From positions 64,822-128,821 of the forward strand of contig JACQBA010000013.1 in NCBI GenBank assembly GCA_016194745.1: DNA of 64,000 nucleotides, in the 5' to 3' direction. Position 1 is the stretch's first letter. Each line of letters starts with the position of its first letter. The translations under genes and the position numbers were made by a program. This document shows, in pieces, positions 24,856-56,439 of the stretch. The notes under the pieces are model-generated. The model was not told where the DNA came from, did not search any database, and saw only the letters and a list, made by a program, of their open reading frames with translations. Source of the DNA: Elusimicrobiota bacterium. Its GTDB lineage: Bacteria > Elusimicrobiota > Elusimicrobia > UBA1565 > JACRDR01.

Positions 24856-24915
24856 TCTCTCCCGTTCACGACGATCGCATCGAAATATATCTAACATATT
24901 TTCTTAGTTTTCCTA

Positions 24916-24944
24916 TTGACTTTAAATATTTTAACTGTTATAAT
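24916..24944 (+). promoter_or_regulatory. near-consensus sigma70 promoter of hspR-clpB (TTGACT-N17-TATAAT) in an AT-rich island
   Basis: TTGACT is at 24916-24921 and TATAAT at 24939-24944. The predicted TSS is only ~5 nt before the ATG at 24956. The spacer contains the 8-bp palindrome AAATATTT. Confidence 0.6.
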
Positions 24945-24955
24945 TTAGCAAGGGC

Positions 24956-25246
24956 ATGAAGATCAACCCGCGTCTCAAGCGGACCCGCAGGACGCCTATC
25001 TACAACGTCGGCGCGGCGTCTCGGCTCACGGGCATCCCGATCTGGACGCTCCGCTGGATCGAGCGCCACGGGCTCGTGGCCCCGACGCGGACGGACGGAA
25101 ACCACCGCTTGTTCTCGGACGAGGACCTGGAGTTGTTGGAGCAGATCCGGCAGCTGATGGAGGAGCAGGTGAATCTGCCCGGCATCCGCATCATCTTGAG
25201 GATGAAGGTCGAGCATACGACCCTCGTCATCCGCAGGAAGGCGTGA
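24956..25246 (+). CDS. hspR: MerR-family heat-shock repressor HspR-like
   Basis: 96 aa. HTH segment is [29 protein letters not shown], followed by a short dimerisation helix. It sits immediately upstream of clpB, the classic HspR arrangement. Confidence 0.7.
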
Positions 25247-25292
25247 CGCGAAGGCCCGGGAGCGCGGCAGGAGCATTGCAGCGGAGGATGTC

Positions 25293-27922
<2,630 letters not shown>

Positions 27923-27926
<4 letters not shown>

Positions 27927-36234: not shown

Positions 36235-36342
36235 AAAAATACAGCTCACCACGGAGACACGGAAGCGGAAAATGCCGTTTCGTGTCTCCGTGGTGAGCGG
36301 TGATATTTAGAGGCGAGGACGGCTCCCGGATGGGGAGCCGTC
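36235..36342 (-). terminator. tandem-hairpin rho-independent terminator downstream of the coiled-coil gene
   Basis: Perfect 10-bp hairpin GACGGCTCCC-ggatg-GGGAGCCGTC at 36318-36342. A perfect 18-bp inverted repeat GCTCACCACGGAGACACG / CGTGTCTCCGTGGTGAGC (36244-36298) follows with a 19-nt loop. On the minus strand it is followed by UGUAUUUUUAGG. Confidence 0.6.
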
Positions 36343-36364
36343 CCTTCCTCCATGACCCGTCGAG

Positions 36365-51909: not shown

Positions 51910-52620
51910 TTAGTCCATCAGCTCCCAGATGAAGTGGAGCACGCGCCGGACCGTGATCATCGCCTTCTCGGTGTCGACGAGGGGCGCGGGGGCCTCGGCC
52001 GATTCTCTGCTCATCATGGCGCGGGCCGCGGCGGGACGCGGGCCCGGGACCGGGACCTCGACGTGATGGTCGCCGCTCGCGACGAGCTTGCCGAGCCGGT
52101 TGCCGCTGGCGGTCGCGGACGCCTCGGCCTTGCCGCGGGCGTGCTGCGTCGCCTTCACGATCGCTTCCTGCTCCGCGGCGCGCTCGGCGGCCTCGGAGAG
52201 TCCGAAGCGCGGGTTGCTCATGCGCGGTCCGAGCGTCTGGAGCCGGGAGTGCAGGTTGCTGCCCTTGAGCCTGACCGTGATGATCGTCGTCGCTGTCCAG
52301 CCGCGATCGTGGTAGTTGCCGCGCTCGTCGCGCTCCTGGTACTTCTCGGGCTGCGAGGTGACGAAGGTGACAACGTCCTGCGCCGCGTTGATCTTGCTCT
52401 TAAGAGCGTTGACCTTCGTCTGGACCTTGGCCGCGAGGGCCGCGGCGACGGTGTCCTCGGTGGCCGGGAAGGCCTGCTTCTCCGTGACCGTTTCCTGCAC
52501 GGTCGCGACGTCCGGCTGGACCTCGACGGAGCCGTTGCCCGAGAACGAGGCGTACCGGTCGGCGTGAACGGCGACCGCCGGCAGCATTCCTAGAACCAAC
52601 GCCCACTTCAATGATCTCAT
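51910..52620 (-). CDS. SIMPL/DUF541-domain periplasmic protein
   Basis: Start is at MRSLKWALVLGMLPAVAVHA (ATG 52618-52620). SFSGNGSVEVQPDVATV followed by the lysine-rich KVNALKSKINAAQD is typical of DUF541. Confidence 0.55.
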   Translation of the reverse strand: MRSLKWALVLGMLPAVAVHADRYASFSGNGSVEVQPDVATVQETVTEKQAFPATEDTVAAALAAKVQTKVNALKSKINAAQDVVTFVTSQPEKYQERDERGNYHDRGWTATTIITVRLKGSNLHSRLQTLGPRMSNPRFGLSEAAERAAEQEAIVKATQHARGKAEASATASGNRLGKLVASGDHHVEVPVPGPRPAAARAMMSRESAEAPAPLVDTEKAMITVRRVLHFIWELMD

Positions 52621-52844
52621 GAGTGACCTCTCTTCCTTTGATGTACGCTCGGCGGCGACGACGCGTCGACCCGAGACGCTTGAAGTATACCCAGCGCTCG
52701 CTCCCGTCGAGTGAGCCTCCCGGGACGATTGCCGGCGGTTTTCGGCCCATACGCCTGTGGTGCGTTGGCTACAGAAGCTGTCTTGCCATCGGACGCCGCC
52801 CGGGGTCAATCAACTTTCGCACGGCAAAATGGTTTAATGGCCCC

Positions 52845-54065
52845 GTGAGCTTCGAGCGTTTCGTCGCCGCGCGCTACTTCAAGGCCAAGCGGAAGGGCCT
52901 CTTTTCCCTCCTTACCACGTTTCTCGGAGTCGCCGGCGTGACGCTGGGAGTGGCGGTGCTCGTCGCCACGATGTCCGTGATGAACGGTTTTCAGACCGAC
53001 ATCGAAAAGAAGGTGATCGGGGCGCAGGCGCACCTCGTCGTCTACGGAGCAGGCGACAAGGCCTCCCTCGAGCGCGCCGAAGGCGCTGTGAAAGCGAGGA
53101 AGGACGTCGTCGCGACGGCCCGCTTCGCCCTGGGCCAGGCCATCGTCACCTATCAAGGGCGCTCGAGCGGCGTGCTGCTCAAGGGCCTCGACCCGGAAAG
53201 CGAGTTCCGCGTCAACGACCTCGCCAAGACGCTGAAGGAAGGCTCGTGGAAGGGGATCGACGCCGGCAGCAAGCCCGCCGGCATCGTGCTCGGCACGGAG
53301 CTGTCCAAGGCGCTCGGCGCGTGGATCGGCTCCGAGATCGTGATCCTATCGCCGCAGGGCGCCAGCACCGGCTTCGGCCTTTTGCCCAAAATGAAGAAGT
53401 TCAAGGTCGTCGGGCTCCTTCACACGGGCTACTACGAGTTCGACAGCACCGGCGCCTACGCGGAGCTCGGGGAGGCGGCGTCGTTCCTCGGCCTCAAGGC
53501 CGGGGCGACCGGCATCGAGGCGCGCCTGTCGGACCTCCACAAGGCGGACGAGGCCGCGTCGGCCCTGCGCTACCAGCTGGGGTTCGATTTCGAGGTCCGC
53601 TCCTTCCGACAGATGAACCAGACGCTGTTCGCGGCGCTGCGGCTGGAGAAGTACATGATGTTCCTGCTCCTCACCTTCATCATCCTGGTTGCTTCCTTTA
53701 ATATCACCTCCAATCTCGTCCTGCTCGGGACCGAGAAGCTCAAAGACATCGGGCTGCTTAAGGCGATGGGCGCGACGCCCGGGCAGATCCGGACGATCTT
53801 TCTTTGGGAAGGCGCGCTGATCGGCGCGATGGGCGTCTTCTTGGGACTCCTGCTGGGCCTCGTCATCTGCTTCGTCATCTGGCGATACCCCCCCTTCGAA
53901 CTGCCCGGAGACATCTACTACCTGACGCGCATCCCGGTCGACGTGCGGCCCTGGGACCTCGTGGCGGTCGTGGCGGCGGGCATCGCCCTCTCGCTGTTGT
54001 CCTCCGTCTACCCCGCGTGGCACGCCAGCAAGGCGAACCCCGCGGAGGTCCTCCAGGAAGCGTAG
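52845..54065 (+). CDS. lolE: lipoprotein-releasing system permease (LolC/LolE, FtsX family)
   Basis: GTG start gives VSFERFVAARYFKAKRKGLFS (LolC/E N-terminus). It has a large periplasmic loop and C-terminal FtsX TM helices. Confidence 0.85.
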   Translation: MSFERFVAARYFKAKRKGLFSLLTTFLGVAGVTLGVAVLVATMSVMNGFQTDIEKKVIGAQAHLVVYGAGDKASLERAEGAVKARKDVVATARFALGQAIVTYQGRSSGVLLKGLDPESEFRVNDLAKTLKEGSWKGIDAGSKPAGIVLGTELSKALGAWIGSEIVILSPQGASTGFGLLPKMKKFKVVGLLHTGYYEFDSTGAYAELGEAASFLGLKAGATGIEARLSDLHKADEAASALRYQLGFDFEVRSFRQMNQTLFAALRLEKYMMFLLLTFIILVASFNITSNLVLLGTEKLKDIGLLKAMGATPGQIRTIFLWEGALIGAMGVFLGLLLGLVICFVIWRYPPFELPGDIYYLTRIPVDVRPWDLVAVVAAGIALSLLSSVYPAWHASKANPAEVLQEA

Positions 54066-54184
54066 CCCCGCATTCAGCGGCGGTAAACAATACTGTAAGC
54101 TTTATTCACTATACACTCATATTCGCGCGTTGCTAGGATTTCGTTGCCCGGGCCGAAAGCGTCCCGGGAACGGAGGATGCGCGA

Positions 54185-55198
54185 ATGAGAATGATTCAGG
54201 CGTTGCTGGCGGCGGCGGTGCTCGCGGCTTCGGCCGGAGCCCAGGGCGGCCCCGTCGAGCCTTATCTGCACGGCCTTTCCCCCGCCGAGAAGGCACAGTT
54301 CGTGTCCACGCTCCAAAAAAGCGTGTTGGAAGCCGCGCGGGAAGTGCTTCAGGACGTCAAGCATCCCAAGGTGCGCAACGGCGCCTACGCGCTGGACTTC
54401 CTCCGGGAACGCGTGCAACGGCGCATCGAGGCCAAGGAATTCGCGCTCACCCACCAGCGCGTGCAGAGCGCCTCGGGAGCGCTCGAGCGCAAGGTCTCGG
54501 AGGAGACGGCGAAGTTCCTCGAGGAGCTCGGGCCGGAGGTCGACCGCATGGCCCGCGACTCGCGCAGCGCGCGGGACCTCTCGACGCGTCTCATCGCCGT
54601 CTCGGACCACTTCGAGCAATGGGCGGGCGCCGCTCCCGCCAAAGCCGCGGCGGCACCGGCCGGGACGTTGACGCCGACGGCGGACAACGTGCTCGGCCCG
54701 TTCCACCGGCCCAACGCCCGTCTGTACGAGCCCACCGGTCCCATGCCCGACATCGCCGCGCGCGAGTCGGGCCGCCGGCTGCATATTCAAGGGCGCGTGC
54801 TTGACGTGAGCGGAAAGCCGATCCCGGGCGCGATCGTGGACGTCTGGCAGACGGACAAGGACGGCGCCTACGACATTCCCGATCCGCGCGAGCGCGATAA
54901 CCCGGCGTTTCCGTACCGGTTCCGCGGCCGCATCCGCACGTCGGATGACGGAAGCCACTCCTACGTGACGATCAAGCCCGGCAACTACGAGTTCGCCGAG
55001 AAGCAGTGGCGCAGCATGCACGTCCACTACAAGGTGACCGCGCCCGGCTTCAAGGACCTCGTGACGCAGCTCTTCTTCGAGGGCGACGCGTACAGTCCCG
55101 CCGACCCGTGGTGGAAGGCGTCGACGACGATCAAGCTGCGGACGCACCACAGCGGCATGGAGATGGGCAACTTCGACATCGTGCTCGAGAAGAAGTGA
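54185..55198 (+). CDS. secreted protein with intradiol ring-cleavage dioxygenase-like C-terminal domain
   Basis: Signal peptide MRMIQALLAAAVLAASAGAQ. GRVLDVSGKPIPGAIVDVWQTDKDGAYD matches the intradiol dioxygenase beta-sandwich signature. Confidence 0.65.
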   Translation: MRMIQALLAAAVLAASAGAQGGPVEPYLHGLSPAEKAQFVSTLQKSVLEAAREVLQDVKHPKVRNGAYALDFLRERVQRRIEAKEFALTHQRVQSASGALERKVSEETAKFLEELGPEVDRMARDSRSARDLSTRLIAVSDHFEQWAGAAPAKAAAAPAGTLTPTADNVLGPFHRPNARLYEPTGPMPDIAARESGRRLHIQGRVLDVSGKPIPGAIVDVWQTDKDGAYDIPDPRERDNPAFPYRFRGRIRTSDDGSHSYVTIKPGNYEFAEKQWRSMHVHYKVTAPGFKDLVTQLFFEGDAYSPADPWWKASTTIKLRTHHSGMEMGNFDIVLEKK

Positions 55199-55287
55199 CC
55201 CGATTGGGGCACCCCCGCGCGTGAGGCGACTCGCGCGCGGCCCAGCCCGGAGCCGGACGCATTTCGGCTCCGGGTATTTCTTTGGGC

Positions 55288-55700
55288 AAAAAGTTAAGGA
55301 GGGCCCCCTTTCGGAGACCCTCCCGTTTGGGCGCATGGAGGATGCTGCACTACGAAGCATAGAGGATTCGAATGACAGAACGGCAACATGGGGAAAGAGA
55401 CGGAGAGTTCCCTCCCATAAAGTTTAAGGAGGGCCCCCTTTCGGAGGCCCTCCCGTTTGGGCGCATGGAGGATGCTGCACTACGTAGCTTAAAGGATTCG
55501 AATGACAGTTCGGCAACAAGAGAATTGAAGCGGCTCTCTCTTTCTGCGGAGAATCGTTTCCCATAAAGTTTAAGGAGGGCCCCCTTTCGGAGGCCCTCCC
55601 GTTTGGGCGCATGGAGGATGCTGCACTACGTAGCATAGAGGATTCAGGTTACAGAACGGCAACGCGCGCACCGGATTTCGGACTCCGATCGCGGGAAAAT
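55288..55700. repeat. three tandem copies (periods ~131 and ~146 nt) of a conserved ~97-nt structured element between the dioxygenase-like gene and lolD
   Basis: Cores at 55288-55388, 55419-55518 and 55565-55663 share aaagtt(t)aaggagggccccctttcggagRccctcccgtttgggcgcatggaggatgctgcactacgWagcWtaRaggattc..cggcaac. Each core has a TAAGGAGG, an 8-bp hairpin GGAGGGCC/GGCCCTCC and an ATG opening MEDAALRS. On the minus strand the hairpin is followed by UUAAACUUU or UUAACUUUUU. Confidence 0.8.
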
Positions 55701-55716
55701 TGGTACTCTGTGCCAG

Positions 55717-56439
55717 ATGGATTCCTCGTCGAGGCCGGCCCTCGAGGCGAAAGGCGTGCACAAGAGCTACCGCAAGCTGCACGAGCGCGTCGACGTGCTC
55801 AAAGGCGCCGACCTGTCGGTGCGCGCGGGCGAGTTCGTCGCCGTCACGGGGCCGAGCGGCTCCGGAAAGTCGACGATGCTCCACCTCCTCGGCATGATGG
55901 ACGAGCCGGACGAAGGCGAGATCCTTCTCTTTGGCAGTCCCGTCAAAGACATGCCCGAGCTTGAGCGCGCTCGGCTGCGCAACTCCAAGCTCGGCTTCGC
56001 GTTCCAGTTCGACTCCCTGCTGCCGGATTTCACCGTACTGGAGAACGTCACGATGCCCGCCCGCATCGGCGGCTCGGCCGCGGACGCGGAGGCTCGGGCG
56101 CGAGAGCTCCTGGGCCGGTTCGGCCTCGGCGCGCTCACCGACCGCTTCCCGCAGGAACTCTCGGGCGGCGAGCGCCAGCGCGTGGCGATGGCCCGCGCGC
56201 TCGTCAACCGGCCCGCGCTCCTCCTCGCGGACGAGCCGACCGGCAACCTGGACAGGCGCAACGGAGAATTGGTATTTTATGCTCTGAAGGAAGTCGCCGA
56301 CAGCATCGGCGTGGCCGTCGTCCTGGTCACCCACAACGACTACGCCGCCCAGTTCGCCACCCGCATCTTGCGCCTGTCCGAAGGACGCGTCACCGAGGTA
56401 GAAGCGATCGAACCGAGCAAGGGGAGCCTGAAACCATGA
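55717..56439 (+). CDS. lolD: lipoprotein-releasing ABC transporter ATP-binding protein
   Basis: Walker A GPSGSGKST, LSGGERQRVAMARAL and Walker B LLLADEPTGNLD. 240 aa. Confidence 0.9.
   Translation: MDSSSRPALEAKGVHKSYRKLHERVDVLKGADLSVRAGEFVAVTGPSGSGKSTMLHLLGMMDEPDEGEILLFGSPVKDMPELERARLRNSKLGFAFQFDSLLPDFTVLENVTMPARIGGSAADAEARARELLGRFGLGALTDRFPQELSGGERQRVAMARALVNRPALLLADEPTGNLDRRNGELVFYALKEVADSIGVAVVLVTHNDYAAQFATRILRLSEGRVTEVEAIEPSKGSLKP

Follow-up and report, generated by a model that had tools for sequence, protein, structure and literature searches.

Duplicated genes for small regulatory RNAs (sRNAs), whose identical seeds occlude the ribosome-binding sites (RBSs) of their targets, include AbcR1/2, PrrF1/2 and the Neisseria siblings, and RsaE/RoxS are sRNAs with C-rich seeds; transcripts and targets are documented for all of these. 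In Listeria monocytogenes, the genes for LhrC1-4 are direct neighbours, and each has a promoter and a terminator of its own. A report on this family describes LhrC1-5 as short multicopy RNAs in which a hairpin loop carries a C/U-rich motif; they repress translation by pairing with the G-rich Shine-Dalgarno (SD) region of their targets, their copies act additively, and their expression, their regulator (LisRK) and their targets are demonstrated experimentally (PMC4132741). The cuckoo/CcsR (RSs0680) family of Alphaproteobacteria consists of 2-4 adjacent hairpins, each with a CCUCCUCCC loop, and forms local clusters with up to 9 copies in Rhodobacteraceae; CcsR1-4 arise by processing of a transcript that they share with the DUF1127 gene upstream of them (PMC4615179, PMC8034643). 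Here, we analyze a 64,000-nt stretch of a metagenome-assembled genome (MAG) of an Elusimicrobiota bacterium (GCA_016194745.1, contig JACQBA010000013.1, positions 64,822 to 128,821; hereafter the window), in which three copies of a structured element of about 100 nt stand in an array immediately upstream of a lolD-like gene. Our preferred reading, to which we assign a probability of roughly 0.45, is that the three units are sibling genes for minus-strand sRNAs that expose an anti-SD sequence.

By analogy, the architecture of the array (multicopy, C-rich loop, own putative terminator) matches that of described sibling sRNAs (PMC4132741, PMC4615179). The likeness to LhrC consists of several near-identical copies, short RNAs and a C/U-rich loop motif, but there is no sequence or Rfam similarity and the phylum is another. 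LhrC carries the motif UCCC with three accessible copies, whereas each unit of the array carries CCUCC with one copy predicted to be accessible, and LhrC is established by experiment whereas the sRNAs of the array are predicted. With cuckoo/CcsR the array has in common an anti-SD-like C-rich loop and clustered copies. However, its unit consists of one CCUCC seed hairpin plus a terminator, the second hairpin having a GAAA loop, it has no upstream minus-strand gene and no Rfam match, and membership was rejected, as that family is defined by 2-4 hairpins with CCUCCUCCC loops. RsaE/RoxS, AbcR1/2, PrrF1/2 and the Neisseria siblings (PMC9973317) follow the same logic as that proposed for the array, but their sequences are unrelated and they belong to other phyla. 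What the array has of sibling sRNAs is near-identical copies with a conserved body and diverged flanks, and a C-rich motif in a predicted loop. Because it matches no covariance model, lacks both the UCCC and the CCUCCUCCC motif and has one seed hairpin per unit, we file it as a candidate of the sibling anti-SD sRNA kind rather than under a named family.

Results

A repeat search of the window found three direct copies of 117 nt each (55271-55387, 55401-55517 and 55547-55663), at spacings of 130 and 146 and with 85-89% identity, between the stop codon of a gene with a Dioxygenase_C domain and the start codon of the lolD-like gene. The best-defined block is 105 nt long (units 1 to 3, Table 1), which leaves gaps of 25 and 41 nt. 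Over the best-conserved 67 nt the mean column identity of the three units is 97%, whereas the spacers between them are unalignable; the tandem-repeat scan (TRF) makes no call on the array because the spacers differ. The core 20-mer GCGCATGGAGGATGCTGCAC and the 30-mer hairpin sequence are each present in precisely three places in the window, against 0.00 expected from shuffles, and a fourth copy of the core was not found there even when 3 mismatches were allowed. The three-unit repeat is real and non-random, and these counts confirm what a preliminary description of the locus had reported, namely three head-to-tail cores, spacers that differ and nothing comparable elsewhere in the window. Unit 1, with its private U variant, is also present in Logan contigs L041 and L042 (independent assemblies SRR12113409 and SRR12113410), and the 5' portion of unit 3 is found in a further Logan contig, L001 (SRR12113410); each of the three contigs stops within the core, as a genuine repeat would predict. 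The copy number is based on the MAG assembly together with the two different spacers and the unit-specific substitutions.

On the minus strand, each unit reads as a short hairpin with a CCUCC loop, a CCCAAAC linker, a longer hairpin with a GAAA tetraloop and a U-rich tail. The longer stem, GGGAGGG(C/U)CUCC-GAAA-GGGGGCCCUCCU, is a perfect 12 bp capped by a GNRA tetraloop, and not 8 bp as previously described; it contains two G.U pairs in every unit and a third in unit 1. The hairpin is weaker on the plus strand because these 2-3 G.U pairs turn into C.A mismatches: the predicted energies for units 1, 2 and 3 are -23.6, -26.3 and -26.3 kcal/mol on the minus strand compared with -13.7, -20.9 and -20.9 kcal/mol on the plus strand, where the 3' arm of the unit 1 hairpin, GACCCTCC, is imperfect and the stem has two C.A mismatches. 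For a 445-nt array sequence the minus strand folds at -164.5 kcal/mol (z = -4.49, with 0 of 100 shuffles as good) and the plus strand at -154.6 kcal/mol (z = -0.43). According to these fold models, the structured strand is the minus strand. The anti-SD loop that had been proposed for it is present: CCUCC is presented in the loop of a short GCAU/AUGC stem (alternative stem GUGCA/UGCGC) and is predicted to be unpaired with a probability of at least 0.96.

Sequence variation among the units is concentrated outside the predicted RNA body. Along the minus-strand block, counted from GTTGCCG, 9 of 37 positions are variable in the upstream part, 1 of 55 in the body (seed hairpin, linker and terminator stem) and 7 of 13 in the tail, and the difference between the upstream part and the body is significant (Fisher p = 0.001). 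The sole change in the body is a C to U in the stem by which pairing is retained (C-G to U.G). Such a pattern is the one that would be expected of a small transcription unit constrained on its RNA body. Energies, z-scores, seed accessibility and variation pattern together support the earlier minus-strand reading of small units with a terminator-like hairpin and a CCUCC loop.

In the mechanism that we propose, each unit would give a minus-strand transcript of approximately 55-65 nt, whose 5' hairpin would expose CCUCC, the sequence of the anti-SD end of 16S rRNA, and whose 12-bp GAAA-tetraloop hairpin and U-rich tail would serve as an intrinsic terminator. Units 3 and 2, with their poorer U-tails, may allow some read-through, which would give a precursor spanning several units and terminating at unit 1. 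The seed GCAUCCUCC would pair in trans with GGAGG-containing RBSs and block translation, and three identical seeds would mainly provide a higher dosage. The best local candidate for a target would be the dioxygenase-like gene next to the array, whose RBS at 54172-54180 (GGAGGATGC; reads GGAGGAUGC) is a perfect 9-nt complement of the seed; as a prediction from complementarity, we offer this as a lead only. A crude count of SD usage showed no enrichment (24/45 compared with 20/37 in controls), a null result that is probably due to uncertain start codons. A second possible target is an 877-aa gene at 25293-27926, whose RBS (25283-25290; GGAGGATG) is complementary to the seed over 8 nt.

Searches for relatives returned only the array itself. 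Rfam, whose covariance models the preliminary description had proposed to search, gave 0 matches for the whole window at gathering thresholds and only noise for the array region at E <= 10 (best match psaA, with 19 bits where the gathering score is 50, E = 0.057), so that neither window nor region has a family match. A strict seed-plus-tetraloop pattern, GCATCCTCCATGCN{4,30}CCGAAAGG, which divergent relatives could escape, gave 15 matches in GTDB species genomes, 18 in JGI metagenomes and none in viral contigs; flank inspection showed all of them to be chance matches, mostly within coding regions, one of them being an Acidobacteriota signal-peptide start (MEDAL). Covariance model R1, built from the 67-nt body, matched nothing beyond the three units and the Logan contigs of this organism, with no match in the syntenic loci of 7 relatives or at the locus of a 50%-identical homologue of the dioxygenase-like protein. 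The search for dispersed copies, also proposed earlier, covered the window, the relatives' loci and the collections scanned, and showed no dispersed copy in the 64 kb of the window. No match was obtained by blastn against plasmid and phage collections, and no tRNA-like gene by ARAGORN. The nearest relatives on long contigs, searched via the dioxygenase-like protein, LolD and LolCE, are approximately 60-65% identical; one LolD fragment is 77% identical and comes without upstream DNA. In a Bryobacteraceae MAG (CBDDBV010000035.1; L006, 6226-6280), the 18-mer GCAGCATCCTCCATGCGC in common with the seed hairpin follows an AT-rich stretch; with 12.2 bits and E = 1.3 under model R1, this is probably a chance match.

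Other kinds of element were considered and rejected. An integron attC site, judged by its R''/R' core sites and a palindrome over the whole site, does not fit, given that the unit ends AAAGTTTAAGG / CGGCAAC depart from RYYYAAC/GTTRRRY and the hairpin lies at one end only. CRISPR arrays have repeats of 23-50 nt and uniform spacers, whereas the repeats here are 105 nt and the gaps 25 and 41 nt. A tRNA-derived element was dismissed on the negative ARAGORN result, a REP/BIME or MITE-like repeat on the lack of other copies in 64 kb and of terminal inverted repeats (TIRs) or target-site duplications (TSDs) at the unit ends, and a plus-strand promoter for lolD within the array on a negative promoter scan.

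The array is part of an insertion (Table 1). In 7 Elusimicrobiota relatives, whose LolD and LolCE are 60-65% and 55-61% identical to the proteins of the window, the gene order is NDK, (PEPCK), two response regulators, lysS, lolCE, lolD, class IV aminotransferase, mcsA and mcsB, and in all 7 of them lolCE and lolD overlap by 8 nt, ATGG(C/G)TGA, without the array element. The window keeps this gene order plus two lineage-specific additions. The position of the array is thus the result of an insertion, and a functional tie to lolD, implied earlier, is contradicted by the seven relatives; judged from this comparison of gene order, the array is not a conserved lolD regulator and its link to lolD is incidental. 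Between the array end and the lolD start there are 53 nt. Plus-strand read-through towards the array should for the most part be stopped by the terminator of the dioxygenase-like gene, and lolD, now translationally uncoupled from lolCE and lacking a visible SD, needs new expression signals. From its sequence and position, TGGTACTCT at 55698-55706, ending 8 nt before the lolD ATG, could be an extended -10 element, in which case we infer that the lolD mRNA could be leaderless.

Table 1 Features of the lolCE-lolD insertion and of the three units of the array (positions in the window)
Feature	Position	Strand	Remarks
Unit 1	55283-55387	-	Block from GTTGCCG; last unit in minus-strand direction
Unit 1 putative -35	55381-55386	-	TTGCCG
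Unit 1 putative -10	55356-55361	-	TATGCT
Unit 1 seed hairpin	55333-55345	-	GCAU-CCUCC-AUGC
Unit 1 12-bp GAAA-tetraloop hairpin	55297-55324	-	Private C>U change (G.U pair)
Unit 1 tail	55283-55296	-	UUAACUUUUUG
Unit 2	55413-55517	-	105-nt block
Unit 2 putative -35	55511-55516	-	
Unit 2 putative -10	55486-55491	-	TAAGCT
Unit 2 seed hairpin	55463-55475	-	
Unit 2 12-bp hairpin	55427-55454	-	
Unit 2 tail	55413-55426	-	UUAAACUUUAUGG
Unit 3	55559-55663	-	105-nt block; nearest lolD
Unit 3 putative -35	55657-55662	-	
Unit 3 putative -10	55632-55637	-	TATGCT
Unit 3 seed hairpin	55609-55621	-	
Unit 3 12-bp hairpin	55573-55600	-	
Unit 3 tail	55559-55572	-	
Insertion, 1,651 nt	54066-55716		Between lolCE stop and lolD start; dioxygenase-like gene, its terminator and three units
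lolCE	52845-54065		Upstream of insertion
Dioxygenase_C-domain gene	54185-55198	+	Signal-peptide-like N-terminus; insertion cargo
Intrinsic terminator of the dioxygenase-like gene	55245-55283	+	13-bp stem, then ATTTCTTT; terminator scan
lolD-like ABC ATPase	55717-56439	+	Uncoupled from lolCE; no visible SD

The protein encoded by the cargo gene has a signal-peptide-like N-terminus, MRMIQALLAAAVLAASAGAQG, and its match to intradiol dioxygenases is limited to the C-terminal ~150 aa and lies below all NCBIfam cut-offs. It is rare, with two homologues (50% and 35% identity) among 5.8 billion proteins, and the 50% homologue stands in a different gene context with no such RNA there. The GC content at third codon positions (GC3) of the gene is 0.89, which is host-like. 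Each end of the insertion is close to one arm of a perfect 10-nt inverted repeat (CGCGCGTTGC / GCAACGCGCG; 54124-54133 and 55659-55668), which is at chance level, with several other 10-nt pairs in the same 1.7 kb. The second lineage-specific insertion in the conserved gene row is a SIMPL/DUF541-domain gene on the minus strand (51910-52809), between lysS and lolCE, which directly adjoin each other in three of the relatives (L037, L043 and L044).

Two further intergenic regions of the window were recorded. At 36241-36350, two adjacent long hairpins, one with 24-nt arms (92% complementary) and a 13-nt loop and the other with 18-nt arms and a 5-nt loop, lie in a divergent intergenic region of 266 nt and have no Rfam match. 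At 24856-24955, a 100-nt intergenic region of 32% GC, in a genome of approximately 65% GC, contains a textbook TTGACT-N17-TATAAT promoter ahead of a 96-aa MerR-family gene (24956-25246).

Discussion

Several results weigh against reading the units as sRNA genes, and the promoter is the weakest step. TTGCCG is invariant in all units, and it is followed by TATGCT (units 1 and 3) or TAAGCT (unit 2) after a spacer of 19 nt, a match to the sigma-70 consensus of 4/6+4/6 = 8/12 in units 1 and 3 and of 4/6+3/6 = 7/12 in unit 2. A promoter scan of the array found 0 sites on either strand, and the same genome has canonical promoters, such as the TTGACT-N17-TATAAT at ~24920-24950. Of the promoter previously described as TTGCCG-N18/19-TATGCT/TAAGCT the hexamers are present, but the assignment is weaker than claimed. 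As to the intrinsic terminator claimed for each unit, it is only on the minus strand that the hairpin has a U-rich tail after it, UUAACUUUUUG in unit 1 and the interrupted U-tails UUAAACUUUAU in units 2 and 3, and the terminator scan accepts unit 1 and fails the other two. In favour of the sRNA reading, no minus-strand gene lies upstream of the array among the called genes, in line with the earlier statement that no minus-strand protein gene reads into the region, and the terminators would therefore be orphans. We found no homologue of the units in the genomes, metagenomes, viral contigs, plasmids and phages scanned, and support from conservation is limited to three paralogues in one genome, among which there is no true covariation and gene conversion confined to the core could be an alternative source of the likeness. 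The complementarity to the dioxygenase RBS does not stand out either, given that 9-mer complements of the seed number 7 in the window compared with ~6 expected, which is not above chance, and a crude, non-discriminating RNAduplex scan of 45 start regions puts that of the dioxygenase-like gene in 4th place. Lastly, GGA motifs in 55288-55700 number 21 on the plus strand compared with 7 on the minus strand.

Non-functional or selfish DNA would account for some of these results. On this view, slippage, unequal recombination or a small mobile element would have multiplied a hairpin segment on the spot, gene conversion would have kept the cores uniform, and no RNA product would be of consequence. 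This would fit an array that occurs at a single locus of a single MAG, within a lineage-specific insertion, has no homologue in the collections scanned, shows no covariation and only a weak promoter match, and breaks assemblies in its core. We nevertheless regard this as unlikely, given that unalignable spacers between cores of 97-100% identity are unlike a simple recent duplication, that variation is uneven and leaves precisely the hairpin and seed portion almost untouched (p = 0.001), that the only change in the stem retains pairing on one strand, and that neither TIRs, TSDs nor another copy were found in 64 kb. All of the structural evidence for minus-strand RNAs would apply equally if these acted in cis as antisense regulators that lower lolD expression, through a duplex with a long 5' leader to which each sRNA would be perfectly complementary or through convergent transcription, and both the position of the array close to lolD on the opposite strand and the need of lolD for new expression signals would suit such a role. 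This role would require, however, that transcription of lolD begin upstream of unit 3, and a strong plus-strand terminator precedes the array whereas no plus-strand promoter was found inside it; furthermore, the possible extended -10 TGGTACTCT would make lolD leaderless, with nothing to pair with, and an exposed anti-SD loop would be unnecessary for such action. We consider regulation of lolD in cis to be quite unlikely.

Two other readings place the function on the plus strand. The excess of GGA motifs, at 21 against a background of 9.0 +/- 3.1 in 413-nt windows (maximum 22), could point to a CsrA/RsmA-type sponge or a CsrA-controlled lolD leader, given that each unit has 5 GGA, two of them in the loop of a GCAU-GGAGG-AUGC hairpin, a density comparable to that of the sponge RNAs CsrB and RsmX/Y/Z. 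Genes for rsmX can be multicopy. Yet the excess mirrors the CCUCC/UCC content of the minus strand, tripled through copying (a single unit has 5 GGA compared with ~2.2 expected), and 2 of the 5 GGA per unit are buried inside the long stem. Structure and termination signals of the array favour the minus strand, the plus-strand fold being no better than shuffles and the unit 1 stem being broken there by two C.A mismatches; the scans found no plus-strand promoter before the array and no terminator after it, and Rfam has no CsrB/Rsm match. Two weak negatives are that a scan of the window's called genes and small proteins showed no CsrA gene and that no literature was found linking CsrA to Elusimicrobia. 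Overall, a functional plus-strand RNA appears very unlikely. A small plus-strand peptide, or a type I toxin-antitoxin-like module combining a short open reading frame with an antisense RNA, is effectively refuted by sequence and retains hardly any probability. The SD-like TAAGGAGG and the ATG frame beginning MEDAALRS are present in all three units as first described, and the frame is open through the whole core, but the leader-peptide role suggested for it is contradicted by the products of 30, 33 and 117 aa, which diverge after ~12 residues and of which the longest continues out of frame into lolD, by 6 nonsynonymous compared with 1 synonymous differences in the common part, and by a GC3 of ~0.58 compared with 0.73-0.96 in 45 called genes. 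The peptides are hydrophilic and not toxin-like, and a protein search with the frame gave 0 matches in 1.84 billion protein-cluster representatives. TAAGGAGG is 33 nt from the ATG and lies inside the 12-bp stem, and the alternative suggestion of a sequestered SD is likewise unsupported.

An extension of the sibling sRNA reading, which we consider very improbable, is that the whole insertion is a self-contained gene-plus-regulator cassette that landed exactly in the lolCE-lolD overlap, with a rare secreted dioxygenase-like gene and three private copies of an anti-SD sRNA that would repress its RBS (GGAGGAUGC); the array could then act on the cargo in trans and on lolD in cis. If true, this would be the first sRNA family described in Elusimicrobiota. 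In any case, the insertion has split a lolCE-lolD junction that is otherwise conserved and translationally coupled, and one may ask how a probably essential lipoprotein-export ATPase came to be expressed afterwards.

Elements of this kind are well known, and the array, a single-genome orphan, appears to be a reasonable annotation candidate rather than a surprise. To our knowledge, no regulatory sRNAs have been proposed before for Elusimicrobiota, whose members are known almost exclusively through metagenomes. If transcribed, the three units would be the first, and they would add a further independent case of sibling sRNAs that mimic the anti-SD sequence of 16S rRNA.

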